Shown: positions 2,697 through 41,301, counted from the first letter of the stretch. The stretch: DNA of 58,260 nt from a bacterium (GCA_040757115.1 JBFLYA010000003.1:1-58260); one strand, 5' to 3'. Translations and numbers: made by a program. Notes: a model not told the origin generated them from the letters alone.

Positions 2697-4535
2697 TTAC
2701 TTTGTTTGAATATCTTCATCATCCTCAAGTAAAAGCAACTCATGGTCTTCTTTGGAATAATTATCTTCTTCAGATGGTTGTTGAGATAGATTCAATTTAT
2801 CTGGAGAAGAAGGTGGCTGTTCCCATTGTGGAGGAACCCCACCTATCCCTGGTGGATATTGACCTGGTTGTTGCGGATAATTTACTCCCCCTATTGGTTG
2901 CTGAGGGGGCGGAGGCGGATAATATCCACCTGCTCCTGATGGAGGTGGATATTGACCTGGTTGTTGTGACCAACCTCTTCCTCGAGTTGGCTGTTGAGGT
3001 GATGAAGGATGGGAGCGGATTCCTTTAATACGAAGTCCAGAACCACTATCCTGTGGTGGAGCTATAGGTGGTTGTTGTGGTGATGGAGGTGGATAAGGGG
3101 GCCATGGATGAGGGCCACCGTATTGTGGTGGATACTGACCCGGTGGAGGAGGTGGATAGTAAACTGGTTGTTGAGGTGGTTGAGGTCCATAATAAGTTCC
3201 TGAAGGCGGAGGAGGTGGACTACCCCATTGAGGAGGGCCACTATATGGCGGTGGATATTGGTCTGGTGGAGGTGGATAATTCCTTACCTGTGGTGAGGTT
3301 GATATATAAGTAGGTTGACCATAGGATGGTCGTTCTCCGATTCCATCAGAAGAAGAAACTCCATGTCTTATAGGTCTCCGAACAGGAGGTGCTATGGGAG
3401 GTATTAATCGTTCTCTCAGTAAAGTATAGATATGGGGAAGAAAGTAAAAGAATATAATGATGCCTAACATAATTGTAAAAGTTATCAGTCTCTCAGGTAT
3501 AATTTCCTGATGAAGAATTTGCTTGCGTTTTTCAGGATCTTCTGGTAGTATTAAACCAGGAATATTAGAAAAATTAATCTTATAAGGGGCTGACTGTACA
3601 TTGTTACTAAGTTGGACCTTATATTCTACAGCATCAACCAATTTTTTCAATTCAAGATTAGTTTTAAAAACAAGTTGATACTCCTTAATAACCCCTAATT
3701 GTATATCTTGATAAATTTGAATAAGTCTATCGCTTGAAGGAGCATAGTAGTAATCACCATGAGACAAAAAAGCAAAATCTTTCAAGATATTCTCATCTAT
3801 ACCAGAATCATTTCTATATCGGGGATTTCCAAATCCTATAGTATAAATAGGAATATTTACCTCTTTAATCTTTTCACAAACTGGATTCACATCTGTCAAA
3901 CCTGTTTCCCCTTCTCTAACTCTAACATCATTCTTTCCATCAGTCAATAAAATAACTATCTGTCTCCCTCCTTGTGGTGATATAGATTCTAATGCTCTGA
4001 TTGTAGCAGAGTATAGGGCTGTGTTATAAGTTGTTGCTTGAAGAAATTCTATTTGGTTTTTCAGTTTTTCCTTATCAGAATAGAATACTATCCTAGAAAC
4101 TTCAGGTACATAACTATTAAAAGCCATTATTGCTACTTTATCGTAGTCCCGCATATTTTCAATAAAATGATAAGCTGATTCTTTAGCAGCATCTATTTTT
4201 CTCTTCCCTTGACCACTATCATTAGCCATACTTCCACTTGTATCTATTGCCAATACTGCAATCAATGGAGTATTACTTTCTCCGATAATAGTTATCTCCT
4301 CGGGAGTTCCTATGTTCTTACCATTTTCAAAAAGAGTAAAATCTTCTTTGACTAATTTTTCACTATAAGGCTTTTTCTCCTCATTAAGAACGGAGACATA
4401 AGCTTTCCCATGAGGACAGTTATCCATTTTCATTTGTCGCAAATGAACTGATGAGATTTCCTCAGCTAAACATCGATTAATCATCATAAAAAGCATCACC
4501 ATTAATATTAAACTAGTTTTCCTTCTCAAAAACAT
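2697..4535 (-). CDS. Single-pass membrane protein: signal peptide, vWA domain, TM helix, long Pro/Gln/Tyr-rich tail
   Basis: N-terminal hydrophobic signal; MIDAS motifs DTSGSM, NTALY, LLTDG; TM LITFTIMLGIIIFFYFL; tail with repeated QYPP/PPPPP. Confidence 0.88.
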   Translation of the reverse strand: MFLRRKTSLILMVMLFMMINRCLAEEISSVHLRQMKMDNCPHGKAYVSVLNEEKKPYSEKLVKEDFTLFENGKNIGTPEEITIIGESNTPLIAVLAIDTSGSMANDSGQGKRKIDAAKESAYHFIENMRDYDKVAIMAFNSYVPEVSRIVFYSDKEKLKNQIEFLQATTYNTALYSATIRALESISPQGGRQIVILLTDGKNDVRVREGETGLTDVNPVCEKIKEVNIPIYTIGFGNPRYRNDSGIDENILKDFAFLSHGDYYYAPSSDRLIQIYQDIQLGVIKEYQLVFKTNLELKKLVDAVEYKVQLSNNVQSAPYKINFSNIPGLILPEDPEKRKQILHQEIIPERLITFTIMLGIIIFFYFLPHIYTLLRERLIPPIAPPVRRPIRHGVSSSDGIGERPSYGQPTYISTSPQVRNYPPPPDQYPPPYSGPPQWGSPPPPPSGTYYGPQPPQQPVYYPPPPPGQYPPQYGGPHPWPPYPPPSPQQPPIAPPQDSGSGLRIKGIRSHPSSPQQPTRGRGWSQQPGQYPPPSGAGGYYPPPPPQQPIGGVNYPQQPGQYPPGIGGVPPQWEQPPSSPDKLNLSQQPSEEDNYSKEDHELLLLEDDEDIQTK

Positions 4536-4541
4536 CTTTCT

Positions 4542-5489
4542 TCACCTCCTAATTTGTTCTCTTGGAGGAAGATTTGAAGAATCACCTGACGAACTTCTTA
4601 CTTTCAGAAATCTAAAGCAGCTACTGCCCAAACAAATAAGGTCTCCATGTTGAAGCTGTTGCTTTCTATCAATTTTATGACCATTTACATAAGTTTCCTC
4701 TCCTTGATTTGGTAGCTCATAAGGTGAGATAAAAAACTGTCTTCCTTCCCAAGAGATTGTTGCATGAAGGGAATCAATAAGTTCATCTCCGACTATTTGA
4801 ATGTTAGCCTTTGAGGAAAATCTACCTGGGTCTCCACTACCAATAATATTTCGAGCGTCACGGTAGAGAGACTTTTTATATTGCTCGCCATACTTTGATG
4901 ATTTATTCCCTTCTACCCCTTGCAAATAAGCATCTGACCCCAAGATACAAGCAAAACTTACTCCTGAAGCAATAGATGCTCCCAGAATAGTAATTCCCCA
5001 TGCCATAGAGACAGTTGGACCAAATATGGTACCCAGAAAGTGATGTATAAAACCTCCTATCAATCCTCCAATAGCTCCACCCAGAAGTCCATTAAGTGCC
5101 CGCCGCATTGACCTCCATCTTATCGCCTCTGCTATACTTACTAAAACACCTAAGGTGGACCATCCAAACATTCTTCCAAAATATGGAATTGTATCTTTGG
5201 TTGCTTCATACAGATAGAAAAATACTACTCCACCTAAACTACCACCAATGATTCCAGTTAACGCTCCCAATAGGAAATCACCAAGACAGGTAGTAATACC
5301 TGAATCCATAATTCTTTCAAGGGCACAAACAAAAGAACCAATGAATATTCCTACCAGACAACCCACAGCAACAGCGGTAATTAGTGGAGAAAATGAAAGG
5401 TCAACTATCCAACACGAGGTAAACCAGCCCAAGAGTCCTGCCAGACAACCTGTAACTCCAAAATAGTATATACTTCTAAAAAAAGTCAT
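4542..5489 (-). CDS. Multi-TM (GxxxG-rich) protein with C-terminal FHA-like domain
   Basis: About six Gly-rich hydrophobic helices, then IIGS...SLHATISW...TYVNG...LQHGDLICLG. Confidence 0.8.
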   Translation of the reverse strand: MTFFRSIYYFGVTGCLAGLLGWFTSCWIVDLSFSPLITAVAVGCLVGIFIGSFVCALERIMDSGITTCLGDFLLGALTGIIGGSLGGVVFFYLYEATKDTIPYFGRMFGWSTLGVLVSIAEAIRWRSMRRALNGLLGGAIGGLIGGFIHHFLGTIFGPTVSMAWGITILGASIASGVSFACILGSDAYLQGVEGNKSSKYGEQYKKSLYRDARNIIGSGDPGRFSSKANIQIVGDELIDSLHATISWEGRQFFISPYELPNQGEETYVNGHKIDRKQQLQHGDLICLGSSCFRFLKVRSSSGDSSNLPPREQIRR

Positions 5490-5492
5490 CTT

Positions 5493-7499
5493 TTATACAC
5501 CTCTTATTTGTGCTTCTAATTCCCTTATTTTTTGTCTTAAGGGAGCATTAGTCTTTGTTCTTTTGACTTCTTCTATAATTTCACTCAACCATTGAGGCAT
5601 TGTAAGAGGAAGCATACTGTAAAAATTAGTTGCCTCAAGAGCCAAAAGCGATTGATAATCATAGATAAGGGGGTCATGATTTGGTTTAAAATCAGCAATA
5701 GCATTTTTCAAATGGTCTATATTTACCTTTTTGGTCTTTGCATATTCAGCCGCGCGTCTTACAATGACCTCAATAGCGGAACCAGTCAAACCTTCTGTCT
5801 CAACGGTTACAAAATCAAAGTCAATACCATCATCATATTCTATTTTTACCTTCTTTTCCATCACTTCAAAGATACTCTTTCTATCCTCCTTATCTGGGGG
5901 TAAAAGGGGTATAACCTTATCAAATCGACGAAGCATAGCCTGGTCCAGAACATCTGGTCGATTAGTTGCGGCTACCCAAATTATCTTACCTCGATTAGAA
6001 TTATCCGACATAAATGTTAATATCTTAGCAAAAATACGCTGGCTTACTCCACTATCTCGACTATCTGTCATCCGAGAACCAAAAGCTTGATCAACTTCAT
6101 CTACAAATACTACTACTGGTGACAGTGCTAGTAAAATATCAAATACCTTAGAAAGATTCCGTTCACTTTCTCCTACCCACATACTGCGTATGTCCTTCAT
6201 TTTCACTAAGTTCATCGTTGCCTCTTTAGCCAGTGCTTCTGCCAGAATAGTTTTACCAGTCCCTGGAGGACCAACTAACAAAATTCCCTTAGGAAGTAAT
6301 TCTACTATGTCTAAAAGGATATTATCGTCTTTTATCTCTTTTTTTTGCTCAAAATATCGTTTTATATCAGCCACTTTCTCCTCAAGAAATTTCTTCACAT
6401 GGTCCAAACCACCTATCGAGTCAAAGCCATGTTTTGGCTCCATCACTTCTAACAAGTTATTACTTTCTGCTTCAATAATTTCCTTCTTCTTCTCTTTCAC
6501 TAAATCATAACTTACATTAATTCCCAGAGCTTTAGCAGAGTTAAAAAGATAATCTAAATCTTTAAGGTTAAACCCTGCGGTTATTTCAGCCAGTCCTTCC
6601 AATGTAGTCCCTTCTTCTAATTTTATTTTAGGCTTAATTTCTTCTAATGCCTTCACAACCTCTTCTAAAGTGGGAATATCTTCACCTGGCACCTTTTCCT
6701 TCTCTGATGTTGAAACTTCTTCTGAAGAGGGAGAACTTTTTTCTTCTGGCATATTTTTCTTTTCAGAGGAAAGAAATCTTAGAAATGCCAATCGTGTTTT
6801 TGCATCTGGTCGATCTATTTTAATAGCCTTACAGCCATAATGAGAATAGATGTCTGGATGGACTGCACCAAGATTTGGAGTTACTAATAGAACTATGTTA
6901 CCAGTATCCTGTCTAATCTTATAGTTCGAAGCCCACCGCTGTAATGTCTCAATCAAGATAATAGCATCTTTATCTTGAGTCCCTGCAGGCAGCAATTTAT
7001 CTACATATTCGATAACGATGGCAGTGCGATGTTCCTTTTGTAACAGAAGATGTTCAAAATTAGGAAAGACTTTCTTAGGGTCTCTGAATGTTTCATCCTG
7101 GGATTGCCTAGCTTGCCTCCCAAATCCTTCAACAACTTTGCGTGACTCTGTTGAAAGGTTTTTTAGTCTTTCTTCATCAGATTTTTCTGGTTCTTCTTCC
7201 TCACCAGCACCAAAAATAGGTAGAGCAAATCGTTTAAGTATGTCTTTTTTTGGCACTAAACCCTCTGGATAGGTAATTCCAGCTGACTGGCAATAGAATA
7301 AGATAATATCATACTTTAATGCCAGTCGCATGGTTAAAAATTCACGCAAGGATAATTTACCTTTTCCTGGCACATAGATAAAATCATTCACATTAAAGTA
7401 GAGAAGAAACATATGAGAGGCATTAGCATTATAGACATTATTAAGTTCTTCCAGCCAGGCAGGAGATTCCCAATTCTCTATAATATTAGTTTCTGACAT
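5493..7499 (-). CDS. AAA+ ATPase, classical clade (Cdc48/Ycf46-like, degenerate N-terminal module plus intact C-terminal module)
   Basis: FDSIGGLD, Walker A GPPGTGKT, pore loop MWVGESE, Walker B VFVDEVD, SRH AATNRPDVLDQAMLRRFD. Confidence 0.92.
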   Translation of the reverse strand: MSETNIIENWESPAWLEELNNVYNANASHMFLLYFNVNDFIYVPGKGKLSLREFLTMRLALKYDIILFYCQSAGITYPEGLVPKKDILKRFALPIFGAGEEEEPEKSDEERLKNLSTESRKVVEGFGRQARQSQDETFRDPKKVFPNFEHLLLQKEHRTAIVIEYVDKLLPAGTQDKDAIILIETLQRWASNYKIRQDTGNIVLLVTPNLGAVHPDIYSHYGCKAIKIDRPDAKTRLAFLRFLSSEKKNMPEEKSSPSSEEVSTSEKEKVPGEDIPTLEEVVKALEEIKPKIKLEEGTTLEGLAEITAGFNLKDLDYLFNSAKALGINVSYDLVKEKKKEIIEAESNNLLEVMEPKHGFDSIGGLDHVKKFLEEKVADIKRYFEQKKEIKDDNILLDIVELLPKGILLVGPPGTGKTILAEALAKEATMNLVKMKDIRSMWVGESERNLSKVFDILLALSPVVVFVDEVDQAFGSRMTDSRDSGVSQRIFAKILTFMSDNSNRGKIIWVAATNRPDVLDQAMLRRFDKVIPLLPPDKEDRKSIFEVMEKKVKIEYDDGIDFDFVTVETEGLTGSAIEVIVRRAAEYAKTKKVNIDHLKNAIADFKPNHDPLIYDYQSLLALEATNFYSMLPLTMPQWLSEIIEEVKRTKTNAPLRQKIRELEAQIRGV

Positions 7500-7502
7500 T
7501 AA

Positions 7503-9239
7503 TTAACTCCTTTCTTTTTCTTGAGGACTAATTTGTTTAACCATAGAGGTAGGAATAGTTTCTTCTAAAAGTTCTACAAAATGTGGGGAGATACAAACTT
7601 CACCTTGGGTATCTACCTCTACAATCCCTTTACCCTCAATCGAAAAAGTTTTGATAACCTTATTTTTACCAATAGTTTCTATTTCTATCTTATCATAGCC
7701 CATTTGGTGGAGTGATAGTAATATTCTATCTACTACTATATCTTGCAAAGTTCGCTCATCTTGAATAAGTTGTGGAATTGTTCCTGTTCCTTCTTTTACG
7801 CCAGTTACCTTATAATTTAAGTATATGCCTCGATTTTTTAACTCATCAAAAAAATGCTGTAACTCGGGTAGACAGGTAGCCTGACCTGCCTCATCGGATT
7901 TAAACCCATCGAGGTCATACAAAATTTCTCCCTCCGCGGAAACATTGACCCTAAAAATTTTCTCTCCTTTTATAGCTTTGTAATATATTCGCTCTTTTAT
8001 TTCAGACTTTTCAATTTCTGTATATTTCATTATTTGAAATACCTCTTCTATCTTTTGACTAATATGTGCCTGAAGATTTTGATTGAGGGTATTAATTGCC
8101 TTTTCTTTAATCTGATTAAATTTCTCCTGAGCATATTTTGCCTGGGACAGAGCATCATCTAATCTACCAGTGCGAAACATCTCTTGAGCTTCAGCTAAAG
8201 TCTGTTTTGCTTCCTCAAAGTTGTCTTTCAAAGTAAGTCTAACAATCTCTCTAACAGATTGAAGTGACTCTTCTTCACTCTTTTCTAACATTTCTATAAT
8301 AATCTCAGCATCTTCTACAGCTTTATCAAAATCTATTTGAATCTGGTTTGTTCTTTTTTCCCAGGTTTCTTTTTCTATCCTCAACCTATTACTTAAGTTA
8401 GACAAATGTTTAGTTATATCTTCCATGTGCTGCCAAACTATCGTGTAATTCTGGTCTTTCCAATTAGTGGTTATATCTCTAATCTCATCTTCTATTCTGC
8501 TAATCTCCTGTTGATTATTAGAAGGAAAAGAACCTGCAATTGTCTCTGTTTCTAATAAATCCAACTCCGCTTTCATTATCATTTCATGAATTTTCTCTGT
8601 CTGCTGATAGTGCTGTTCCTGAAGAACATAAGCTTTCTTCATTGTCTCTTGAAGCACACTTAAGGCTTCTTCTGCAAGACTATAAGAAGATGGAAATTCT
8701 CCTCTCTCTAAATTCTCTTTTCCTCGCTGTTCAATATTAACTATCCTATCTATTGCCTCTTTTTCTACAAATGGCAATCTCTGAACTTTTTCTAACATAA
8801 AATCCACTTCTTGCCAATTCATTGAAATTATTTGTTTAGCTGTTCTTTCCTCAGCCTCCTGGCCTAAAAATTTCAATTCTTCCCTAAATTGCTTTTCTTG
8901 CTGGAGATATTTCTGTCTTCTTTGTTCAATCTCCTGTTGCTCTTTAATAGCCTGTTTATGAGTCTGAAATCGTAATTTTTTATCTTTTCCTCGCTCTTTT
9001 TTGATAACTTCTGCTTTTTTCTGATGTTCTTTAATTAATTTAGTAACTCTCTGTTTTTCTTTCTCAAGCATCTTTTTTACTTTTTCTCTTCGTTTCTGAG
9101 CTATCTCTTGAGCGGTGTTATTAACTACTTCATATAACTTACAACCACAAAAAACCAATCCTTTGGCACCATAATAAACTCCGCTTACTGCTGCCCCTAA
9201 ACAAATTCCTATTACATCTGCTCCCCCTGCACTACTCAT
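7503..9239 (-). CDS. Long coiled-coil protein with C-terminal DUF2997-like segment
   Basis: E/K/Q-rich helical body; FRVNVSAEGEILYDLDGF...TCLPELQHFFDELKNRGI near the C-terminus; AAGGAG RBS; 3 bp from the ATPase start. Confidence 0.7.
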   Translation of the reverse strand: MSSAGGADVIGICLGAAVSGVYYGAKGLVFCGCKLYEVVNNTAQEIAQKRREKVKKMLEKEKQRVTKLIKEHQKKAEVIKKERGKDKKLRFQTHKQAIKEQQEIEQRRQKYLQQEKQFREELKFLGQEAEERTAKQIISMNWQEVDFMLEKVQRLPFVEKEAIDRIVNIEQRGKENLERGEFPSSYSLAEEALSVLQETMKKAYVLQEQHYQQTEKIHEMIMKAELDLLETETIAGSFPSNNQQEISRIEDEIRDITTNWKDQNYTIVWQHMEDITKHLSNLSNRLRIEKETWEKRTNQIQIDFDKAVEDAEIIIEMLEKSEEESLQSVREIVRLTLKDNFEEAKQTLAEAQEMFRTGRLDDALSQAKYAQEKFNQIKEKAINTLNQNLQAHISQKIEEVFQIMKYTEIEKSEIKERIYYKAIKGEKIFRVNVSAEGEILYDLDGFKSDEAGQATCLPELQHFFDELKNRGIYLNYKVTGVKEGTGTIPQLIQDERTLQDIVVDRILLSLHQMGYDKIEIETIGKNKVIKTFSIEGKGIVEVDTQGEVCISPHFVELLEETIPTSMVKQISPQEKERS

Positions 9240-9282
9240 TGGTATTCTCCTTTAAACTACATCTTGATTATTCAACAAATTT

Positions 9283-9529
9283 CGACCTGTGCGGTTAGGT
9301 TCAAATAAAATGCAAGAAGCAGATATTCAATGCTACAAACAGGTCGCTCCTACGGAGCTACAAACATATTGCTTTTGCGGAATGCTACAAACAGATTGCT
9401 CCTACGGAGCTTTATTTATATTAGCTCCAGAGGAGCGGTCTGTTTGTAGAAAGATTATATCCTTACAACATAATTAGCTCCAGAGGAGCGACCTGTGTAT
9501 TCTTTTTCTCACCCTAACCGCACAGGTGG
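9283..9529. mobile_element. 247-bp MITE carrying four REP-like palindromes
   Basis: TIRs CGACCTGTGCGGTTAGG / CCTAACCGCACAGGTGG; 8-bp target duplication ACAAATTT (9275-9282, 9530-9537); internal gctcctacggagc / gctccagaggagc hairpins. Confidence 0.88.
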
Positions 9530-9536
9530 ACAAATT

Positions 9537-10127
9537 TTATAAAGCTCCTTTTGTTGCCTCTTGAGAAATCCTCATCCTGTTCTTCAAATTTTTAACTTCA
9601 TCATTTAAGTCTTTGATTTGCTTTTTCAAGTTTTCATTTTCTGTCTTCAGTTTGTTACACTCATCTACAAGTTCATTATTGACCTTCTGTAAACTCTCCT
9701 TATCTGCATTCACTTTCTTAAGTATTTCTTCTATTTCTTTTACCTTATCTGCTTTCTGGTGATTTTGTTCTTCACTTTGTTGAAGTTTTTGAGATAAGAT
9801 TTCATTCTCCTTTGCTTTTTGAGAGATTAAACCTTCCTTTTCTTTTAATCTCCGCTGAACTTCATTAAGTTCAAATTGAAGGCTATTTATTTCTTGCCTA
9901 TGTTGTGTCTGTAGTATAGTAATCTGACTATTTAAAGAACGATTTTGAGTAGTTAGATTTTTTATTTCAGCCTTATAGCGTTCTATTTCAGTATGTAATT
10001 GTCGAATCTCTTTTTCCTGTCCTCCTAATAAGAGCGATGGGGTCCTACTCATATTAGAAACAGGAGTTGGTTTTCTTTTTCTTCGTACCCGTATATCTTT
10101 TATTTTCACACTCGAACTATTTTGCAT
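9537..10127 (-). CDS. Coiled-coil protein
   Basis: 196 aa; basic N-terminus followed by continuous heptad-like sequence; GGAG RBS. Confidence 0.75.
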   Translation of the reverse strand: MQNSSSVKIKDIRVRRKRKPTPVSNMSRTPSLLLGGQEKEIRQLHTEIERYKAEIKNLTTQNRSLNSQITILQTQHRQEINSLQFELNEVQRRLKEKEGLISQKAKENEILSQKLQQSEEQNHQKADKVKEIEEILKKVNADKESLQKVNNELVDECNKLKTENENLKKQIKDLNDEVKNLKNRMRISQEATKGAL

Positions 10128-10170
10128 GTGATTATCTCCATTAAATAGAACGGCATCGTTCCACCCACAT

Positions 10171-10305
10171 TTATCCTCCTATGAAATTATCCAATTTGGT
10201 GATTGTAACCTTAGCTACCTCACTCCACTTACCCTTTCTCTCATTATAGTCAATAGCTCTAATTCTATACTCAAGGATTTTCGTCAATCTGTTACCTCTG
10301 CCCAT
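10171..10305 (-). pseudogene. 44-codon ORF paralogous to the last FN3-like strands of the JAB protein, ending -FIGG
   Basis: MGRGNRLTKILEYRIRAIDYNERKGKWSEVAKVTITKLDNFIGG; 10201-10282 is a diverged direct repeat of 10571-10652. Confidence 0.5.
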
Positions 10306-10315
10306 TCTGCCCTAC

Positions 10316-12208
10316 TCATTTGTTTTCTTCTTTCAAACCTTCATTTCTCCTTACCCCCTCTTCACCACTATCGACATTCTGTAACGACTGGTCTTCCTTA
10401 TTTACATCTGATGGATTAGACATTTCTTCTTTTTTTACACTTGGTTGAAGTGGTTGTTGAGGTGAACCCTCATCCTTTTTTACGGTTGGACCTTTTTTTT
10501 TATCTTCCTTTTCTCTCTTTCTTGTGTTTGTATTCCAATTATTTTGCTGGCCCTTCTTTCTTTCTTCTTGGATTGTAACCTTAACCACCTTACTCCACTC
10601 CCCCTTTTCATCATTACAGCCAATAGTTCTAATTTTATACATAAGGTTTTTCTTTTGTTTTGGTGACCACTCATCGCTATATTCTTTTGAATTCCACGAA
10701 TATATATCTTTTAGTTTTTTAAAATCCTCCTCTCCCACTTTTACCTGAATTTCATAATATTTAACGGAACTATCTAAATTATCATTCCATTTCAAAATCA
10801 CAATTTTGCCATCTTTTTCCAGCTCAGCGTTGAATCCCGTAGGTGCTTCTAGTTTAGGTGGTATTGGTTCCTGTGGTATTGGTGACGAAAACTCTTTCGT
10901 ATAAGATTTATCATTTTGTAACTTGAGTGTTAAAGTATATTTGTAGTCTTTTCCCGGTAAGACATCTGTATCTTTATACTGCCCATTAATTATCTCTTGA
11001 TGACTAAGGGTTAGTGATTTATCATGCTCATTAGATGATGTTCTCTTTAAAATTCCGTCTTTGATTTCTTTTTCATCTACTCCTTTCAACTCCCATTTTA
11101 CAACTAATCCATCTTTAGATAGTTCGGGGCGCAATATATCAAATATATCATTAGAGACTGGATTACTTAGATTATCCTTTTTTTCTTGAGGGAATTCAAC
11201 AGGCCGTTCACTAGGGATTTCAACAGGTTGGAACATAAGGAAGATAAGGTAGATAAAGATGACAGCCATTACAATCATTCCACACCAAAGGATTATTTCC
11301 ATCACATCCTGGAAAGTAATTTCCTCCAGAGATTCAATAAGCTCACCCCAAATTTTTTTAATTGGATTAGGTTTTTTAGGACGGTATTGAGGTTCAGTTT
11401 TCTCATTAGATTGCCGATTTTGTCCTTTTGTAGGAATATTATTAACTCTGCGAGTTGAATAGTTATCCATGCAAGGGGAATAGTCATCCAGATAAAATTC
11501 AGCTCTACATTCTGAGTCTAACCTATCATTTTCCCAGATAAAGTATCCTGCTGTCTTCTTTTTAGGTTGAATAACCAAAGCTACATGCCAGGGCTGCATA
11601 AAATTGGTTTTCGCTAACTCTCGGTCAGGAGGAGAGAGTGAGATATCGTGACTTGGATGACTATGATACCAACCCACTTGTTTAAGATGTGAATACTTCT
11701 CTTGTTGTAGGTTTTTTACCCTATTTTTTTCTTGAGGGGTAAAGACAAAGTGGTCGTATCTGGCATTGTCATACTTCATAGGAATGGCTTCCTCAATATG
11801 AACCATATATGTTTCTCTTCCCATTTTCTTTACTGGAGGAGGCACATACCCTAACAAAATTCCTCCTGTTTCATTAGGAATTTTTTCTTGAGATTGAAAA
11901 AAGATTTTTTTGTAGACCCTCTTCACACAAAAAATTTCTACTGGAGAATTGGATACCTGCCAGGGAATCGTCTCGCCACTTATCTCTGTCTCCTTACTAT
12001 TTCGTATCCCTTTTATTCGTAGATTAGTAACATTTTGGTTCTCTTTCTCTTTACCCAATTCTTTTTCTTTCTCAGGGGGAGGTGACATAGCTGATTGAGA
12101 AGATACTTGACTCTGTCTGGGAATAGAAGGTTGTATAGATCCTATTTTATGTTCCCACTGTTCTAATCTTCTTTGTAACCAATTTTCTTCCTTTTCCTTC
12201 AAGTCCAT
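10316..12208 (-). CDS. JAB/MPN+ (Mov34) metallopeptidase with TM helix and C-terminal FN3-like domains
   Basis: NETGGILLG and JAMM motif GWYHSHPSHDISLSPPD (HxH-x7-S-x2-D); TM ILWCGMIVMAVIFIYLIFLMF; YKDTDVLPGKDYKY and APTGF...VILKW...YKIRT...GEWS. Confidence 0.88.
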   Translation of the reverse strand: MDLKEKEENWLQRRLEQWEHKIGSIQPSIPRQSQVSSQSAMSPPPEKEKELGKEKENQNVTNLRIKGIRNSKETEISGETIPWQVSNSPVEIFCVKRVYKKIFFQSQEKIPNETGGILLGYVPPPVKKMGRETYMVHIEEAIPMKYDNARYDHFVFTPQEKNRVKNLQQEKYSHLKQVGWYHSHPSHDISLSPPDRELAKTNFMQPWHVALVIQPKKKTAGYFIWENDRLDSECRAEFYLDDYSPCMDNYSTRRVNNIPTKGQNRQSNEKTEPQYRPKKPNPIKKIWGELIESLEEITFQDVMEIILWCGMIVMAVIFIYLIFLMFQPVEIPSERPVEFPQEKKDNLSNPVSNDIFDILRPELSKDGLVVKWELKGVDEKEIKDGILKRTSSNEHDKSLTLSHQEIINGQYKDTDVLPGKDYKYTLTLKLQNDKSYTKEFSSPIPQEPIPPKLEAPTGFNAELEKDGKIVILKWNDNLDSSVKYYEIQVKVGEEDFKKLKDIYSWNSKEYSDEWSPKQKKNLMYKIRTIGCNDEKGEWSKVVKVTIQEERKKGQQNNWNTNTRKREKEDKKKGPTVKKDEGSPQQPLQPSVKKEEMSNPSDVNKEDQSLQNVDSGEEGVRRNEGLKEENK

Positions 12209-12218
12209 ACTTCACCTC

Positions 12219-13079
12219 TTATATTTCAAGACTTTGCTTTTTAGTAGATTTCTCTGATGAATCCTTGTGCAATACTATTTTGACCCTTTTCTCTCCTAGT
12301 TTTAAAGGAAGTGTCAGCCCTACTCTACTTAAAGGAAAGAAGTCAGGATGTTTCTCTTTATAAGCCAAATACCATTCTTTGGCTTTAAGATTCATCCTCG
12401 GGTGGTCATCATCGAGGTTTACAGACCAATATTGTATCAATTTACAACACTGGACACAGGCATAAATCAAGTTACTGTCCAGTGGATACCATTCGAAGAA
12501 TAAGCATACATCCCTTTTCTTATCCATATTGGCATTAGGATGAAAAATATCGGTTACCGCGATTACAACTGGTCGAAGAATAGGATAATCTCGTGACAAT
12601 GTTAATCTAAGAATATGTTCATCTTCCTTTATTATTGGTTCTTTCTTATCGTCTAATCCACTAATTCCCTTTATCTTCATCAAAATAATTTCAATCTCTC
12701 CTGGAGATAGCCCCTTCACTCTTAGATGTTCAGGATTAGCCGTTGCTAACCGTAATAATCCAGCCCGGTCTTCTTGAACCCGGTTCGTGTTCTCATAGGC
12801 AGCTACTTCTGATGGGTCATATACTGAAATAACACTTCCTGGTGGGACACCCATGTTTGACAAACTATTATCAAGAAAGAGCTCCTCTTGATTCCAGAAA
12901 ACAGAGTACTGAACCTCTTGTCCCTTTTCATCATAGAGACGGATAGGATATTCTGTTCCTTGAGAGGTTCTGATAAGGTCTCTCAAGACATCTATCAAAG
13001 ATGTCTCATCATCCACTTCTACACTATACTCCTGCTGACCTTTTGGTGTAGTTACTACAAAAATAAAATTATTAATCAT
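12219..13079 (-). CDS. Ubiquitin-like (beta-grasp) domain fused to E2/UBC domain
   Basis: aa 1-94 YSVEVDDETSLIDVL...LDNSLSNMGVPPGSVISV; E2 motifs DYP..RP, IFHPN(180-182), Cys192, W and MNLKAKEWY. Confidence 0.85.
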   Translation of the reverse strand: MINNFIFVVTTPKGQQEYSVEVDDETSLIDVLRDLIRTSQGTEYPIRLYDEKGQEVQYSVFWNQEELFLDNSLSNMGVPPGSVISVYDPSEVAAYENTNRVQEDRAGLLRLATANPEHLRVKGLSPGEIEIILMKIKGISGLDDKKEPIIKEDEHILRLTLSRDYPILRPVVIAVTDIFHPNANMDKKRDVCLFFEWYPLDSNLIYACVQCCKLIQYWSVNLDDDHPRMNLKAKEWYLAYKEKHPDFFPLSRVGLTLPLKLGEKRVKIVLHKDSSEKSTKKQSLEI

Positions 13080-13110
13080 TAGTGATACACCTCCTTCAGA
13101 AGATTAGACT

Positions 13111-14226
13111 TTAACTTGACTTTTGAACGGAATAAGCAGGAAAATCCTCTTCAATCTTCCCCATTTCTCTCATTAAGAAGATTATCAAGATACCATTTGT
13201 TGGCTCCAAATCCAGAAGAGTTTCCGTTTTCTTTATGCTGAGTTTTCTTTCTGCTATTCTCTTTATCAAAGCGGGATTAATTGGTAATACGCAGTAGTTA
13301 TTGCCCACCTCTTTTATTTCAGGGATAAAAACTGGTAATAAATCTACTATTGATACATCTGCTGGCAGCCGTCCTGAATATAGTTTCAACTGAGCAAACA
13401 GAAATGAAACAGCAAATACTGTAACGATAGGTCGAAGAACTAATTCTTCACAAGGAAAGATATTCTGTTCGTAGAGTCGCTTTTCGTTGTCTATCCAAAT
13501 TCTTTTCTCTGGATGAACTAACCGATAATCTGTTATTCGAGATGCCTCTCCCTTATTCCATACTTCATTTGTTAATCTTAGGAAGTCAGGATGGTTAAAT
13601 ATTTGACTTACGGGCTGAAGACAATCTACATCAATCTCCACTCCTCCTTTTTCTCCAAATGTAGTTATCTTCATTTTAATAGACATAGGGTATGCAGTAA
13701 TACTCTCCCCTTCTTCTAAAACAAATGGAGTAGGGTCTTGTGCTTGAAGTAATTGTTTTCTACCCTTAACTAAAATGAAATTATTCCACTTAACATCTTG
13801 TTGTAGATATTGATACAGAGAATAGATAGGATACCTTCCATCCGTAGGGAAATATAATGAAAATTTTTCCCCCTGCCTATCTTTGCTAGTCCAATTAAGG
13901 ATCTCAACTACATCAGGGCTTTTAATCAATAGAAGATTTTCATGATGTCCCCTTAATTGTTCAAGAGAGAGTTTTAGATTTTTAACAATACCCCAGGAAT
14001 TACGGTTGGGAGAAAAAACAGCTACATTAGTTTGCGCTTCTCTCCACTTAATTTCAGCTAAAAGTTGTGTTTTTATGTCTTTCAAAGAGGTATTTGATGG
14101 AAACCCTCTTCTTTGTCTAAAAAGTGATGGTTGACCTTGCAACAACTCAATCCACTGGCACAGTTTATCTTCTTGTATTATCTTCCAATTACCTTCATAG
14201 GTGTATATATTAGGGAATAAATTCAT
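13111..14226 (-). CDS. Probable tandem ubiquitin-like (beta-grasp) repeat protein
   Basis: Up to four ~80-aa units: FPSNTSLKDIK..LSLEQL; FPTD..LEEGESITAYP; IDVDCLQPVSQI..RLYEQNIFPCEELVL; LPADVSIVDLL..TETLLDL. AGGAGG RBS. Confidence 0.55.
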   Translation of the reverse strand: MNLFPNIYTYEGNWKIIQEDKLCQWIELLQGQPSLFRQRRGFPSNTSLKDIKTQLLAEIKWREAQTNVAVFSPNRNSWGIVKNLKLSLEQLRGHHENLLLIKSPDVVEILNWTSKDRQGEKFSLYFPTDGRYPIYSLYQYLQQDVKWNNFILVKGRKQLLQAQDPTPFVLEEGESITAYPMSIKMKITTFGEKGGVEIDVDCLQPVSQIFNHPDFLRLTNEVWNKGEASRITDYRLVHPEKRIWIDNEKRLYEQNIFPCEELVLRPIVTVFAVSFLFAQLKLYSGRLPADVSIVDLLPVFIPEIKEVGNNYCVLPINPALIKRIAERKLSIKKTETLLDLEPTNGILIIFLMREMGKIEEDFPAYSVQKSS

Positions 14227-14250
14227 TTCTTATACCTCCTCTTCTTTCCT

Positions 14251-14922
14251 TTAACTCTTCGTCTTTTTATAACTTCTGAGATTAATTTTGCACTCAGGAT
14301 TGAGGCATCTCCAGCGATTAGGTACTCCCCAACAATCTATACATAAGATAGTATCACAGTTAGGGCACTTTCTTAAGTCCAAGCTCTGTCCATCGCTTCC
14401 ACTATTTCTTCGACAGAGTGGACATATATAGTTAGGTATCAATAGAGTATTACCAAGTGCCTCTGGTATAGGTTCAAATTGAGTAGATGGAATAGCTGTT
14501 CTGACTACTTTATCTTTTTTACCATACGCTGGGAAAAATATAATCGTGAGCACCCCTATTATTACTCCTACCGCACTTGCTATTAAAATCAGAGAATGCT
14601 CATCAATGAATTTGTTTAATTCTACTTGAGAGATTTGTAGAATCAAATAAAAGAACAATAGAAAATTTCCTATTCCACAACCTATACCTTGCACTAGAAC
14701 AGTTAGAAGTCTCCACCTTTGAACCGACCTCAGTAGAAGAGCAATAACACATCCTACTACAAATTGGAGAATACCAAATACTATCCATGGAACCTTCACC
14801 CAAAAGAGTATCCCTCCTAATATTGCACCAAATAAGCTTATCACTCCTGAAACACCAAAATTTCTAATCTTATCCATATTCTGTTTTAATCTTCTCATGA
14901 ACAGATTTTTTCTCCTTTTCAT
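14251..14922 (-). CDS. Multi-TM membrane protein with C-terminal RING-like zinc finger (putative E3)
   Basis: About four TM helices, then C-x2-C-x15-C-x2-C-x4-C-x2-CW-x7-C-x4-C (aa 167-211); ATGA overlap with the E1 stop. Confidence 0.75.
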   Translation of the reverse strand: MKRRKNLFMRRLKQNMDKIRNFGVSGVISLFGAILGGILFWVKVPWIVFGILQFVVGCVIALLLRSVQRWRLLTVLVQGIGCGIGNFLLFFYLILQISQVELNKFIDEHSLILIASAVGVIIGVLTIIFFPAYGKKDKVVRTAIPSTQFEPIPEALGNTLLIPNYICPLCRRNSGSDGQSLDLRKCPNCDTILCIDCWGVPNRWRCLNPECKINLRSYKKTKS

Positions 14923-16187
14923 TCAAAATTCATAACCTCCATTTCATCACCAGTCAATTCATAGAATTTACTTATACTTTTCTTTCCATCATCTATTACT
15001 GCCTCTAAGATATCCAGTTGACGCAGTCCTCCTTGTGTTAAGGTCAAATTAAGGAAATCAACATTTTCATCTAACTCACTCACAGACTTAGCTATTTCTT
15101 GAGGTGTCCCACAATGAGAGCAACTTTGATGCTCTATAAATACATACGGGGATTGATAAACCTTCTCAGTCTTTTTGCAATTAGGACAGGAGGCAGAGAT
15201 TACCAAATCATACCAAAGACTAATTCTTGCCTTCTTACCCAAATCCTTTTTAACTTTTTCAAGTAACTCGCCAATAGTGGTAGAATTAGAGTTAAACTCT
15301 TTAACCTCAATTATATCTTTTTCTGGGATAGGGGAACGAATTTGATGAATAAGACACTTTGGGTTACGGCGACGAGTAAATACTTCCATTTTATGGTCTT
15401 GTGTATCTATGTGAATAATCTTATTCAATAATGGTGTTATTTCTTCATTATTCATTAAAATTTTAAGTCCTTCTTGTACCTGAAGAGCACCAATAAGAGA
15501 AGCCATCATAGGTGTAGAAGGGACAAATCCTCTTTTTTCAGATTCTCTCTCAATTTCAGCGCAGATAACCCCTCTGCCTGTTCCTTTTTCCAGAATCTCC
15601 TTTACCATCTCTGATGATAGAGAACAAGCATAACAAGCTCCTGCAGGAACATCAAAAACTGTTACTGCTCCCCGTAAGACATTAACATCATTTAACCCGG
15701 CATCAATCCATGGTTTTTTAACCCGGATACAGGCATCGTTTAAAATAATACGGGGCAGGCGGCTGTCAAAATCACAAAAAATAAGGTCCATTCTACGCAA
15801 TACTCCTAAACCAAGTGAAGCAATATTCCCATGAAAAGTAGCTACTTTAACATCAGGATTAACTTCCTTTATTTGCTCAGCTACTACCTCTACTTTAGAA
15901 CGGCCAATATCTCTTTGGCGAAACATTATAGACCTGGTTAAATTAGAGAGCTCTATAATTTCCTTATCAACAAGTAAAATCTTACCACAGCCAATAAGAG
16001 CTAAGTTTTTAGCCACTTCATTGCCAATGGCTCCTACTCCACCTATCAGAGCCGTACTATTCTTAACCACACCTTGTTTCCACCCGTGGATAGTTTCTAA
16101 TCTAGAATATCTTTCTTTATCCTCATCCTCTTTATCTTTTTTACTGATAGAAATTTGCTTTTTGAGTGTTTTGGGTATTATATCCAT
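14919..16187 (-). CDS. ThiF/MoeB-family E1-like adenylyltransferase with C-terminal zinc-ribbon extension
   Basis: RYSR, GGVGAIGNEVAKNLAL, ELSNLTR, GRSK, CYAC, putative catalytic Cys in VICAE, PKCLIH, CPNC/CSHC. Start placed at ATG 16187 (GAGG RBS, downstream of the promoter). Confidence 0.93.
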   Translation of the reverse strand: MDIIPKTLKKQISISKKDKEDEDKERYSRLETIHGWKQGVVKNSTALIGGVGAIGNEVAKNLALIGCGKILLVDKEIIELSNLTRSIMFRQRDIGRSKVEVVAEQIKEVNPDVKVATFHGNIASLGLGVLRRMDLIFCDFDSRLPRIILNDACIRVKKPWIDAGLNDVNVLRGAVTVFDVPAGACYACSLSSEMVKEILEKGTGRGVICAEIERESEKRGFVPSTPMMASLIGALQVQEGLKILMNNEEITPLLNKIIHIDTQDHKMEVFTRRRNPKCLIHQIRSPIPEKDIIEVKEFNSNSTTIGELLEKVKKDLGKKARISLWYDLVISASCPNCKKTEKVYQSPYVFIEHQSCSHCGTPQEIAKSVSELDENVDFLNLTLTQGGLRQLDILEAVIDDGKKSISKFYELTGDEMEVMNFE

Positions 16188-16207
16188 TTGTGCCTCATTA
16201 TGAAAAT

Positions 16208-16236
16208 ATTTTACCACAAATTTTGTCCTTTGTCAA
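16208..16236 (-). promoter_or_regulatory. Sigma-70 promoter of the Ubl operon
   Basis: TTGACA-17 bp-TAAAAT with extended -10 TG, 20 bp upstream of the E1 ATG. Confidence 0.8.
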
Positions 16237-16872: not shown

Positions 16873-19800
16873 TTATTCCCAGAATCTACCTGTTAGTCTT
16901 AGGTAAAATCCGCTGGCTGAATAACTATCATCAAGTATCTCACCATCTTTGTATTCGATGAGGTTATATCCTAAGACAAATTTAAAGTGGCTGTTAAATC
17001 CAAAACCTAACTCTAAGATAGGATTTAGCTTATAGTCATTGGTCAAATGTTGATGTAGAATTCTATACCCGCCGGTTATATCCAACCTTTCGTTAATATT
17101 ATAAGTTAATCTACCCATTATAAGGTCAATATGAGAAATAATATCCTCTACCTCTATCCTCCTCATCGCATACTTTCCCAAAAGGCTCCATTTATTAGTT
17201 GGAACATAGATAGATTCTAAGGAAGCAATAGCACTTTTATTACTAAACTCATATTTACTCAATAAATTGAATTTATTAGTCTGAGGAGGTCTGTAGGCTA
17301 ATGCAAGTAACAGCTTTGATTCGCAAGAATCAGTTTCTGTCCCGCTATCCTCTTTTTTACTCTTCTCATAGGTATATTTCAAGTAGGTTGTTAATCCGTT
17401 AAGGAATTTCTGTTTTAAGTCTGCAATTAGTAATGCGGTGGAATCATTAACATTTCCCTCTCTGGAGTAAGAATATTTTAGAGAAGAGGTTAAGTCATTA
17501 TTAATTTTTTGGTTAAGTTCAACTTCTCCTGAAATAGTCTCCTCTTTATCCAATTCTTTCCTAATTTCGTTTTTAGCTGACAATTTTGTTTTATCAGTTG
17601 GTGTAAAGTTCACCCCAAATGAATTAGTGGTGGAATCAGTTATCTTCCCTGCACCAATCTCTTTTTCTGCATTATTTGCCGCGGAAATGACTATCTTTGG
17701 ATGTGGTGAATAATCTATTCCAATAGTAGTAGCTATGGATTTGGTCTTCGTCCCTTCGATGTAGTCAGCCTTCCAACCAAGTGCACAGGAGGTATTTAGC
17801 GATACCAATTCAAATAGCTTAGTTATTGCTCCTATGGTAAGGTGATGTTCTCTAAGAAGATGTTTGCCATGTGCCATTTTATTAGTTAAATCATATTGGA
17901 TAGAAGGTGATACCATATCATATTCTGATGTTAATTTGAGGCTAATGTCATGAGTTATCGTATCTAAATCACGATTAATAAAATTATCAGAATCTGTAAG
18001 GCTGTATTTTAATCCAAAATCATGCCTACCTATTGAACCTCTATCTCCTAAAGTAAACATCTGTTTACGGCTCTTGTGAATTTGGTTACTCACCTTATTT
18101 TCTTCTTGAAAATTTGCAAAGAATGTAGAATTATCAAGCTCCTGTTTAAACCCCAGTCCAAATATATCAGTTTTTGTCTTATTTTTCTTGGGCTCATTAG
18201 TAGTTATCTTCTTTTGAACATATAAGGCTTTATCAGTCATTAGCTTGTAATCAACTCGTGAGCCGTATTCTCGGATATCCTTTTGAGTAGTAAGATTAGT
18301 GATGTCATAAAACTCTGGTCCATACTGGTTAAAATCGTCTCTTTCTTTATCAGCAGTAGCCTCAATTTTATTAGAGAAGTTAGCTCCAATTTGATGATAA
18401 AAGGTCTTAACCTTGCATCTATCGTTTGAGTGAGAAGATAAGGTTTCTATAAAAGAGGCAGAGTTGTTAACTTTTGGATTTAATAGTTCTAAGTCTCCAT
18501 CGGTCTGGGCATATTCACCCTTAATAGTAAATTCTTTGCAGGGATTAAAAGAACTATCTAACCCATAAAGGTGGTAGTCAGTTGGAGACTGTTCCTCTTT
18601 GATATAAGTTGTACCTACTTCTAAGCTCTTATGTGGTTTTGTTACTCCACGAAACCCATAAATGGCATGTTTGTAATCTGCACCTATGGGAATATATTCA
18701 TAAATCACTACAATATAATATCTGATTCCTCCACTTTCGATTAAAGGGACAGGCTCTTCAAATATCAACCTTCCTGTATCATAATCCAGGGAATAGTCCT
18801 TATCTTTTTCTTTCTCTATAGTGGCAAAAACTTGTAAGTTTTTCTCATCCCGGGTTTGGATTTTAATCTTTTCACTTCCATCCACAATTGGGCAATGTGT
18901 AAGATAGTAAGGGCCACAAATTCCCCTCCCAGGTATATCATCCCGAGCACTAACTTGTCTTGTAGAGGCACCAAATACAGTAATCCTGGAATTGGCGATA
19001 TGTTTTTCTATCTTTGCTCCGGTAAGACTTCTATGATATGTTGATAATTTATTTTCTCCTAATGCGGTTGAATAATCGCCATAAAGAAGCTCTAAATCCT
19101 TAGATTGTAATTTTAGAAAGATAGGGTCAGAAGATGGAGTGTTATTAACGACTTTACTATCATCACCATAGATTGGATAGTAATCATCTGGATTAGCCGG
19201 AGAGGATAATTTATCCTTGCGAGTTTTCTTAGTATCAAGTGAAGTAGTAAGTTGATATTTATCTTTTAACTTAGTTTTTAAGTAAAAGGCTAAGCATCCT
19301 TTATATCTTGCACTATTTCCATACTTTTTACGAAATGCCTTTATATTTCCAGTGACCGTATCTTCTTCCATTTCAAGCTCTGCTAATCCAATAAAAACAG
19401 GCTTATCTGTGTAAGTAGCAGAGTATCTTTTATCCGCTGCCCTTAAGATACCAAAGTCTAACTTTGCCATTCCATGAGGAGAAAGATCAATAAATTGTGG
19501 CTTAGTAGTACTTAAAGAATACTCATCAGATAAGGTATTTATGTCAATCATTAGCAGGTGACGACCTGGTTTAACCGCTGGAATTGAGTATCTACCTTCA
19601 TCATCAGTAATTACACTCATCCCATTTTCCATAAGGATGCTTACATTACCAATTCCCGCCTCTCTATCTTGCTGTATCCCATCACCATTAGTATCCTCAT
19701 ATACCTTGCCAATTATAATCCCATGCTCTCTAAATACTCCATCTTTAATCCTGACTATTGCAAATACATTAGTTACTACTTTCTCCCCTTTTTCAGCAGT

Positions 19801-20252
19801 GCCCGATACCTCTGCTAAGTTCTTTTGGTCACCAGATTCAGCATCAATCCCAACTAACACCTTGTAAGTTAGTATCTTTTCTTCATTAATTGGGAAATCG
19901 CCAATCTCCCAGGTAAAAGGATTTTTACCTATCGGGTCTTTAAAGCAGTCAGAATTTAACCTACTTGTCCCTTTGATATACTTAAAATTATATGGGAATT
20001 TATCTACTATTTTAACCTGATTTATCTTCCCATAGCCAATATTCTTAACCTTGATGGTATAAGTTATTATATCACCAATCTGAGCGGTTTTATCACTTGC
20101 CGTTTTAATAACCAATAAAGAGGTATTGTGGTCAAGATAGATATCCTTTGTAAGTGTCTGTCCTGAAATCAAATGGAAGGTAGTAGAGGTCTTTGGATAA
20201 TAATAGTCTGCCCTAACTGTAAGATAGTAATATCCTGCGGCTAAATTACTAA
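16873..20252 (-). pseudogene. 5'-truncated duplicate of the large surface/outer-membrane protein gene at 36959-41254
   Basis: Colinear with 36959-40338 at constant offset 20086; homology stops at 20252; lacks the signal peptide and about the first 305 codons; frame otherwise open. Confidence 0.88.
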
Positions 20253-23821: not shown

Positions 23822-23850
23822 TTGACTTTTACGAATAGTTATGCTAATCT
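23822..23850 (+). promoter_or_regulatory. Putative sigma-70 promoter
   Basis: TTGACT-17 bp-TAATCT with extended TG, upstream of ATG 23883. Confidence 0.55.
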
Positions 23851-23882
23851 TATTTAAACATTACATAAGGGAAAAAATAAGT

Positions 23883-41254: not shown

Positions 41255-41301
41255 TTCTATCACATCCTTGTTGGGTAACTGGGTAATTAACATTCAATCA
41301 G

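Follow-up and report, generated by a model that had tools for sequence, protein, structure and literature searches.

The peptide LRIKGIR is encoded twice in an operon for ubiquitin-like protein (Ubl) conjugation in GCA_040757115.1 JBFLYA010000003.1:1-58260, the 58,260-nucleotide stretch of bacterial DNA analyzed here (the window). One copy lies in the cytoplasmic tail of a vWA membrane protein and the other near the N terminus of a JAB peptidase. Related operons carry short basic-hydrophobic strands of the same class at the same ends of the corresponding proteins, and at the level of sequence the motif is conserved both in position and in pattern. Since this same-end conservation extends across a distant operon family, a docking function is likely. 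More specifically, LRIKGIR would be the local form of that motif and would serve, much as a SUMO-interacting motif (SIM) does, as a docking peptide for a shared acidic partner, most probably a beta-grasp domain; we regard this reading as evenly poised between right and wrong.

The same heptapeptide in two unrelated proteins

From 2697 to 16217, every gene is on the minus strand and belongs to a single compact cluster, in which LRIKGIR and the strands that resemble it occupy the following sites.

3015..3035, minus strand: LRIKGIR copy 1, residues 501-507 of the vWA protein, in the Pro-rich tail that follows the transmembrane (TM) helix
12002..12022, minus strand: LRIKGIR copy 2, residues 63-69 of the JAB protein, ~50 residues ahead of the catalytic Glu113
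10089..10109, minus strand: VKIKDIR, residues 7-13 of a 196-amino-acid (aa) coiled-coil protein, followed by RVRRKRK
12270..12287, minus strand: RVKIVL, residues 265-270, in the C-terminal tail of the E2
16143-16160: KQISIS, residues 20-25 of the E1
6618..6635, minus strand: KPKIKL, residues 289-294, in the acidic/Lys-rich linker of the AAA+ protein, a possible further copy

A first-pass annotation of the window had listed LRIKGIR at both positions, with the codons that encode it, and VKIKDIR, RVKIVL, and KQISIS as related strands in the coiled-coil, E2, and E1 proteins; all were confirmed by position. The two LRIKGIR copies share 15 of 21 bases, and all six differences fall at third codon positions. 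Their surroundings are unrelated both as DNA (18/45 and 6/45 flanking bases identical) and as protein (0/15 and 0/15 flanking residues identical). A recently copied DNA segment was ruled out on these grounds, and the view taken in the annotation, that the identity resides in the peptide, holds.

Both copies sit in regions without a predicted or apparent fold. The vWA copy lies ~130 residues beyond the TM helix, where it supplies the only Lys of residues 381-579 (Lys504) and three of the nine I/L/V/M/F residues in the segment from 420 to 580. The JAB copy falls within residues 22-73, for which an AlphaFold2 (AF2) model of JAB residues 1-262 gives a predicted value of the local distance difference test (pLDDT) below 50, and the motif is not docked in cis in that model. 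The start codon of the gene bearing VKIKDIR is supported by a GGAG 8 nucleotides (nt) ahead of its ATG.

A basic strand motif at matching protein ends of related operons

A metagenome scan seeded with a 12-row alignment of the nearest JAB domains returned 80 loci, 11 of which carry homologues of the window E1, E2, JAB, TM-FHA, and vWA proteins side by side. The layout of this operon family is E1-RING-Ubl·E2-Ubl-JAB-FHA-vWA; in one member (L094), Pfam identifies a GntR-HTH-ThiF E1, a protein ending in Prok-RING_1, a YukD+UQ_con protein, a free YukD Ubl, JAB, FHA, and VWA. BLAST identities between the window proteins and these relatives are 22-36% overall (E1, 31-36%; E2, 25-30%; JAB, 28-33%; vWA, 25-29%), and the FHA proteins align over nearly their full length at 24-31%. 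Within the set of relatives, identity runs from 37 to 78% between vWA proteins and from 70 to 91% between E2 proteins. The window operon is, as judged from these sequences, an elaborated and distant member of the family. It differs from the other members in that its JAB and RING-like proteins are membrane anchored, three extra genes (for two helical proteins and the AAA+ ATPase) stand between JAB and FHA, the putative Ubl is a multi-unit protein of 371 aa (polyUbl), the order of Ubl and E2 is swapped, and the E1 lacks the long C-terminal tail of the related E1 proteins.

In the relatives, the vWA protein ends in a short cytoplasmic tail that carries the pattern G-R-[IV]-[KR]-hydrophobic ~10-40 residues past the TM helix, often with a second copy at the extreme C terminus, and the JAB protein starts with a strand similar to this tail motif. 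The regular expression [RK][IV][RK][ILVFM] was fixed after viewing these vWA tails and JAB N termini and was then applied to the other proteins, with open reading frames (ORFs) of at least 150 aa as controls (n = 410). It matched within the last 45 residues of 8/8 E1, 7/7 E2, and 9/11 vWA proteins (controls, 24/410) and within the first 45 residues of 3/9 JAB proteins (controls, 18/410), counts that overstate independence because the loci are kin (the vWA proteins form ~7 clusters at 60% identity). One of the two vWA proteins without a match is cut by a contig end, and the other ends in a near-match. When the E1, E2, and vWA tails were shuffled, none of 2,000 shuffles reached the 12, 10, and 10 matches observed (means, 0.80, 0.76, and 1.03), demonstrating that composition does not explain the pattern. 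The E1 tails hold up to two matches to the expression each and, by eye, three or four strand-like repeats.

In the window E2, the RVKIV of the C-terminal tail aligns in register with ERVK[LIV] of seven related E2s, directly after the UBC fold, and RVKIVL is thus a conserved feature. The grouping of related strands proposed in the first-pass annotation stands in this part, but not for KQISIS, which resembles the N terminus of an E1 paralogue on contig C414 of the same genome and could not be tied to the motif class. The broader proposal, that a motif is conserved as peptide in unrelated proteins of the operon, was borne out: even relatives this distant carry the class in the vWA tail, in the E2 tail, and at the start of JAB, and they carry it in the C-terminal tails of the E1 proteins as well.

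An old element at the N terminus of the JAB family

The JAB copy of LRIKGIR is, on comparison of its homologues, an old element of its own protein family. In 126 homologues with an N-terminal JAB domain, the corresponding element contains Ile (90 of the 126), F/L/I (105), and Gly (84), its middle position being R, K, E, N, I, or T; in 48 of the 126, a hydrophobic-x-hydrophobic-Gly pattern stands ~56 residues before the catalytic Glu. MAFFT places the L-R-I-(K)-G of the window JAB on this element. The C414 JAB paralogue and the JAB proteins of related genomes have a comparable strand at the same spacing to a downstream Pro, by our count. In P0049, a typical member, AF2 models the N-terminal extension with confidence (pLDDT of 70, 93, 87, and 83 for residues 1-40 taken by tens), and in this JAB family the extension is predicted to pack on the core.

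The core of the window JAB has a confident AF2 fold that is Rpn11/AMSH-like; the top Foldseek matches were 5u4p_B and 6fnn_A (E ~1e-8). Its residues E113, H182, H184, S192, and D195 are invariant in 77 sequences. A comparison with the sequences of solved structures returned no close relative, the best match having an E value of 2e-4 over 45 residues.

Predicted docking on a shared acidic partner

In the mechanism that we propose, a core of [RK]-[IV]-[RK]-hydrophobic on the flexible ends of the enzymes and in the vWA cytoplasmic tail would allow several proteins to dock one shared acidic partner. The partner would be a beta-grasp (Ubl) domain, either free or fused to the E2, and binding would proceed by beta-strand addition, as for SIMs in the SUMO pathway. 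Through this docking, the E1, the E2, the peptidase, and the tail of the vWA protein would assemble at the membrane.

Charge complementarity alone favors a Ubl as the putative receptor. In operons with basic tails, whose net charge is +3 to +16, the free Ubls range from −5 to −10 and the Ubl regions fused to E2 from −3 to −8; the N-terminal region of the window E2 carries −11. Across 20 operons, Ubl charge and E2-tail charge are inversely correlated (Spearman −0.68 when the E2 tail is taken as its last 12 residues, −0.79 when it is taken as its last 30), although these operons represent few independent clades and 11 of the 20 are of the basic-tail type.

In operons with a short E2, the C terminus of the E2 and the N terminus of the JAB protein encoded in the same operon look alike, by eye only; L136 and L146 have acidic strands at these ends, L108 and C414 mixed ones, and L120 basic ones. 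This resemblance suggests that the two ends address one co-varying site.

The FHA domain was set aside as a receptor. The motif has no Thr, and FHA homologues occur in loci without the basic motif (L114, L136, L155, and L170). Also opposed to it, three of 15 loci without the E1 tail have a long E2 and no motif. The first-pass annotation had proposed SIM-like docking on Ubl or FHA-like domains. The placement of the motif fits that of SIMs and charge favors the Ubl, but FHA gained no specific support, and a complex model points weakly to the JAB core, a partner that the annotation had not named.

That model (described below) and several other observations weigh against docking of LRIKGIR on a Ubl as a member of the motif class. 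The R-I-K core is present in the window vWA and JAB copies, but the fourth core residue is Gly, as it is Asp in VKIKDIR, where the relatives have a hydrophobic residue, and the strict expression and a matrix built from 36 distinct instances in the relatives fail. By that matrix, none of the four sites named in the first-pass annotation scores above 9, a value exceeded by 170 sites across the proteome; KPKIKL, in the linker of the AAA+ protein, is the one operon site among these (rank 146 of the 170). MAFFT does not place the window vWA copy on the GR[IV][KR] of the relatives. A local alignment of the window JAB to a hidden Markov model (HMM) of the family N terminus begins at N70, just past the motif, and leaves it out, and even in the relatives the strict expression is confined to a minority of JAB N termini, as counted above. 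Finally, the units of the window polyUbl are near neutral (−2, −2, and +1), and the small number of clades limits the charge correlation.

A more general form of the docking reading is possible, and we put it forward tentatively as the less probable of the two. Bacterial Ubl operons may use a SIM-like code in which multivalent strands on E1 and E2 tails, on the JAB N terminus, and on a receptor tail bind one beta-grasp surface, with the charge of the strands co-evolving with the Ubl (basic with acidic, acidic with near-neutral). In the window operon, such a code would build a membrane signalosome that couples a periplasmic vWA sensor to Ubl conjugation and to the AAA+ ATPase.

Alternative explanations

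The strand could instead dock on the JAB core, in cis from the N terminus of JAB itself and in trans from the vWA, E2, and E1 proteins, and act as a pseudo-substrate that mimics a ubiquitin tail or as a tag that recruits the peptidase. We consider this unlikely. The alternation of LRIKG, ending in Gly, does resemble the C-terminal tail of a Ubl, and both the confidently modeled extension of P0049 and the fixed distance of the motif from the catalytic Glu in 48 of the 126 homologues are consistent with binding to the core. Further in its favor, a complex model of JAB residues 70-262 with vWA residues 485-524 reached interface scores (ipSAE) of 0.45, 0.49, and 0.50, compared with 0.00 for the best of three controls, with a partner pLDDT of 44-45 and at least 48% of contacts agreeing between runs. 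This outcome is classed as "weak support." In the calibration of the method, 58 of the 80 solved complexes reached the mark, as did 2 of the 110 mismatched pairs, and only 7 of the 80 solved complexes but both mismatches lay at or below 0.60; a pass at this level proves false more often than true if the pairing was not already probable, and here it may reflect memory of solved JAMM-ubiquitin complexes. Moreover, the window copy is left undocked in cis by AF2, the multi-strand E1 tails are hard to explain as peptidase binders, and VKIKDIR and most of the relatives' copies have no Gly after the core.

Very unlikely, in our estimate, is that the tails are polybasic, partly hydrophobic segments that associate with the membrane and have no protein receptor, the vWA copy merely following the positive-inside rule. 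Such segments would keep the soluble E1, E2, and JAB proteins at the anionic inner leaflet beside the membrane proteins of the operon. The charge of the tails fits this explanation, as do the TM segments indicated by hydropathy in the vWA, FHA, RING-like, and window JAB proteins and the closeness of the relatives' vWA motif to the TM helix. However, the pattern is destroyed by shuffling of the tails, and ERVK[LIV] is kept in register right after the UBC fold. In other subfamilies, the strands at these E2 and JAB ends are acidic or mixed, and the window vWA copy is far from the TM helix, within the Pro-rich tail.

A third alternative would be that the identity of the two heptapeptides is a coincidence and that each segment is just the tail of its own protein, without a shared function. 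We give this still less credence. When all 44 window ORFs were shuffled 400 times, different proteins shared a 7-mer in 29% (global) and 33% (local) of the shuffles, and genome-wide there are 41 isolated 7-mers (27 gene pairs) shared between neighbors at most 15 kb apart, mostly paralogues or P-loop motifs, with about 5-8 pairs that are chance-like by our reading. The window copies do not stand out by the matrix built from the relatives. Two more near-copies of the motif, returned by a BLOSUM scan of the E2 (residues 119-125 and 134-140), align with the start of the UBC domain; when compared with a shorter paralogous E2, they map, as we read them, to the first UBC strands, and they were discounted as linear motifs. 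On the other hand, at least one 7-mer was common to different proteins in only 1.9% (global) and 3.3% (local) of 2,000 shuffles of the 10 operon proteins, both copies fall where the relatives carry the motif class, and both are islands in otherwise unrelated, disordered sequence. Across the 4.3-Mb genome the exact 7-mer LRIKGIR is found only at these two sites; the looser pattern [LVIM][RK][IVL]K[GDNSA][IVL]R has 11 matches over the six frames; 5 of them are in ORFs of at least 80 aa, and 3 of these 5 belong to the window operon. The 7-mer identity alone is only marginally beyond chance and by itself is weak evidence, and the case for a real feature therefore rests on the related operons.

The least probable explanation of those weighed is that the motif designates a lysine for conjugation or is an E3 degron, with vWA Lys504 and JAB Lys66 as Ubl attachment sites recognized by the E2 or the RING-like protein: an acceptor-Lys consensus does exist for SUMO, Lys504 is the only Lys over some 200 residues of the vWA protein, and the tails of the relatives are Lys-rich and often end in ...K, but cores with Arg only are frequent at the same positions in the relatives' JAB, E1, and vWA proteins, which argues against a required acceptor lysine, and the middle position varies widely in the JAB family. 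The suggestion in the first-pass annotation that the Lys could be a conjugation site is accordingly disfavored.

Comparison with described systems

SIMs are usually flanked by acidic residues. The motif class described here differs from them in that the charge is reversed, basic strands being paired with acidic beta-grasp domains. A short hydrophobic core, a disordered region, and a flanking charge complementary to the Ubl, as expected of a SIM-like peptide, are present in this system. In the SUMO pathway, a SIM lies at the extreme C terminus of the E1 subunit SAE2, and others lie in the disordered extensions of SENP proteases, according to the portion of PMC12687455 consulted; as described there, these are likewise short hydrophobic strands flanked by charge in the disordered ends of an E1, a protease, and partner proteins, and they are compatible with catalysis. 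The likeness extends to placement, the motif class here being at the C termini of E1 and E2, at the N terminus of JAB, and in a receptor tail. Unlike the SUMO-SIM pair, the system is bacterial and membrane bound, and binding in a beta-grasp groove is our inference.

The closest described systems are those of Kaur et al. 2020 (PMC7159879), which in the section concerned comprise an E1, a RING-type E3, a Ubl-E2 fusion, and JAB, accompanied by helical proteins and a second AAA+ and associated with FtsH-type vWA ternary systems. The window operon also has E1, JAB, vWA, AAA+, and helical proteins, together with a putative Ubl-E2 and a RING-like protein. Its vWA protein, in contrast to those of that section, has a signal-peptide-like N terminus, a TM helix, and a Pro-rich tail rather than an N-terminal beta-propeller, and a TM-FHA protein is present. 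The same section mentions no shared tail motif. No MoxR family was among the Pfam matches, which cover 39 of the 44 window ORFs, and Pfam gave no effector family in the operon or elsewhere in the window (an EAD1-fused Ubl, a caspase-like or another effector), although EAD1 may have no Pfam model. The complex variant of those systems also includes a protein with an inactive and an active FtsH-type AAA+ domain; in the window AAA+ protein, Pfam identifies a single active AAA domain.

With the Caldiarchaeum-type ubiquitin operon, as treated in the relevant part of PMC6043591, the window operon has in common an Rpn11/AMSH-like JAB core and, if the 371-aa protein is indeed a Ubl, a precursor with a C-terminal extension after Gly. 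In CsRpn11, as given there, the catalytic Glu is residue 24, without an N-terminal extension, whereas the JAB family of the window has its Glu ~60 residues in, after the conserved N-terminal element. The antiviral Bil system (BilABCD; 10.1101/2023.09.26.559546) likewise includes an E1, an E2, a Ubl, and a peptidase of the JAB type, which trims that Ubl after Gly. In the passages of that account that bear on the point, BilC has its catalytic Glu at residue 33 and no such N-terminal extension, and no RING, vWA, FHA, or tail motif is described. A literature search found no description of such a motif in bacterial Ubl operons in the titles and passages covered.

How bacterial Ubl systems choose partners and targets is largely unknown, as are the substrates of most such operons outside antiviral defense. 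A motif common to the E1, the E2, the peptidase, and the vWA cytoplasmic tail provides a concrete handle that can be mutated, and it suggests that the vWA receptor is a likely partner or substrate. The docking reading predicts that the E2 and the peptidase compete for one site. If the receptor is a beta-grasp domain, the system would be a prokaryotic counterpart of SUMO-SIM recognition, and if the more general SIM-like code is true, noncovalent Ubl recognition through linear motifs would predate the origin of eukaryotes.

Searches for closer relatives

The searches made found no orthologue of the JAB, polyUbl, or vWA protein. For JAB, a word-indexed search (E ≤ 1e-3) listed 10 other proteins with at most 33% identity, all matching in the JAB domain only (18-35% of the query), and an exhaustive HMMER search with residues 1-262 gave 2,772 matches at E ≤ 1e-3 and only the protein itself at 1e-30. 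Among the 150 HMMER matches listed, one other protein (P0068) has a best stretch that reaches residues 63-69, without extending upstream. The polyUbl was found in 0/40 related genomes, one of the same genus included, and shows only weak similarity (E = 0.07) to a related YukD-like Ubl. Among 57 vWA homologues (at most 32% identity), neither the Pro-rich tail nor the motif was seen in the first 12 tails, which were read by eye. A scan with the N-terminal region of the AAA+ protein, relying on a Walker A pattern, gave five full-length matches (L013-L017), with no E1, E2, JAB, or vWA gene nearby.

Genes of the operon and other features

The genes of the cluster are as follows.

2697..4535, minus strand: vWA protein, 612 aa, with a signal-peptide-like N terminus, a vWA domain (Pfam VWA, 1.5e-16), a TM helix at ~345-373 (hydropathy), and a 232-residue Pro-rich tail
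4542..5489, minus strand: multi-pass membrane protein with a C-terminal FHA domain (Pfam FHA, 3e-09); residues 8-298 align to the FHA proteins of related operons
5493..7499, minus strand: AAA+ ATPase (Pfam AAA, 2.5e-35) with a 395-residue N-terminal region
7503..9239, minus strand: 578-aa protein, Lys/Glu/Gln-rich and coiled-coil-like, no Pfam family
9537..10127, minus strand: 196-aa coiled-coil protein with VKIKDIR at the N terminus
10316..12208, minus strand: JAB/JAMM peptidase, 630 aa, with Glu113, HSHP at 182 and then Ser/Asp, a TM helix at ~299-332, and a C-terminal extracytoplasmic region (Pfam Prok-JAB and JAB above cut-offs)
12219..13079, minus strand: E2 with an acidic N-terminal Ubl-like region (net charge given above, residues 1-95) and a basic tail; BLAST matches to related Ubl-E2 proteins
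13111..14226, minus strand: 371-aa protein with several beta-grasp units as read from the sequence, ending in ...REMG plus 15 residues, no Pfam match
14251..14922, minus strand: membrane protein with a C-terminal Cys-rich, RING-like zinc ribbon (Cys pattern and hydropathy), no Pfam match
14919..16217, minus strand: E1 (ThiF family; Pfam ThiF, 4.8e-46, above cut-off), without the long C-terminal tail of related E1 proteins

Pfam gave no family for the 371-aa, 223-aa, and 578-aa proteins. BLAST links the RING-like protein weakly (E = 0.069) to the part of the L094 protein that Pfam assigns to Prok-RING_1. In the E2, the Pfam match to UQ_con is weak (0.0033; 17.5 bits, under the 27-bit cut-off); BLAST matches to related E2 proteins have E values of 1e-7 to 1e-16, and one of these proteins has UQ_con at 7.6e-11. 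The AAA+ protein has one active AAA domain (residues 406-530 by Pfam).

The tail of the vWA protein contains 66 prolines in the 232 residues after the TM helix. Much of it (window positions 2697-3560; residues ~420-600) is of low complexity, rich in P, Q, Y, and G, with repeated PPP..Y units and an acidic end (...LLLLEDDEDIQTK). The tails of the related vWA proteins are only ~30-45 residues long.

Ahead of the gene for the 196-aa coiled-coil protein (10140-10195, minus strand) lies an ORF of 9 codons that is preceded by a strong AGGAGG and stops just before the GGAG of that gene; this ORF may be a leader peptide or may serve translational coupling.

The E1 of L094 (2773-4434) is fused to an N-terminal GntR-type winged-helix domain (Pfam, 1.9e-18), and the related E1s are of similar length (543-614 aa). 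The fusion hints that this E1 also regulates transcription. In the genome that contains the window, contig C414 carries a minimal paralogous operon (4625-8208) of an E1, a small Cys-rich zinc ribbon protein, a Ubl ending in ...AG, an E2, and JAB, with no vWA, FHA, or AAA+ gene; the N terminus of its JAB protein is identical in a genome of the same genus (L009).

Elsewhere in the window, two DUF11/SdrD-B-like surface proteins of 1,099 and 1,444 aa (16873-20172 and 36959-41293, minus strand) have ~1,000 identical 7-mers in common, indicating that one is a recent partial duplicate of the other. In a housekeeping cluster, two aconitase-family large-subunit genes (23841-25127 and 25646-26899; each ~4e-98) stand on either side of a small-subunit gene and represent a tandem duplication. 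The whole 85-kb length of contig C1 of the same genome (1-85076, minus strand) is taken up by one reading frame of 28,358 codons, a giant gene with no stop over those 85 kb.

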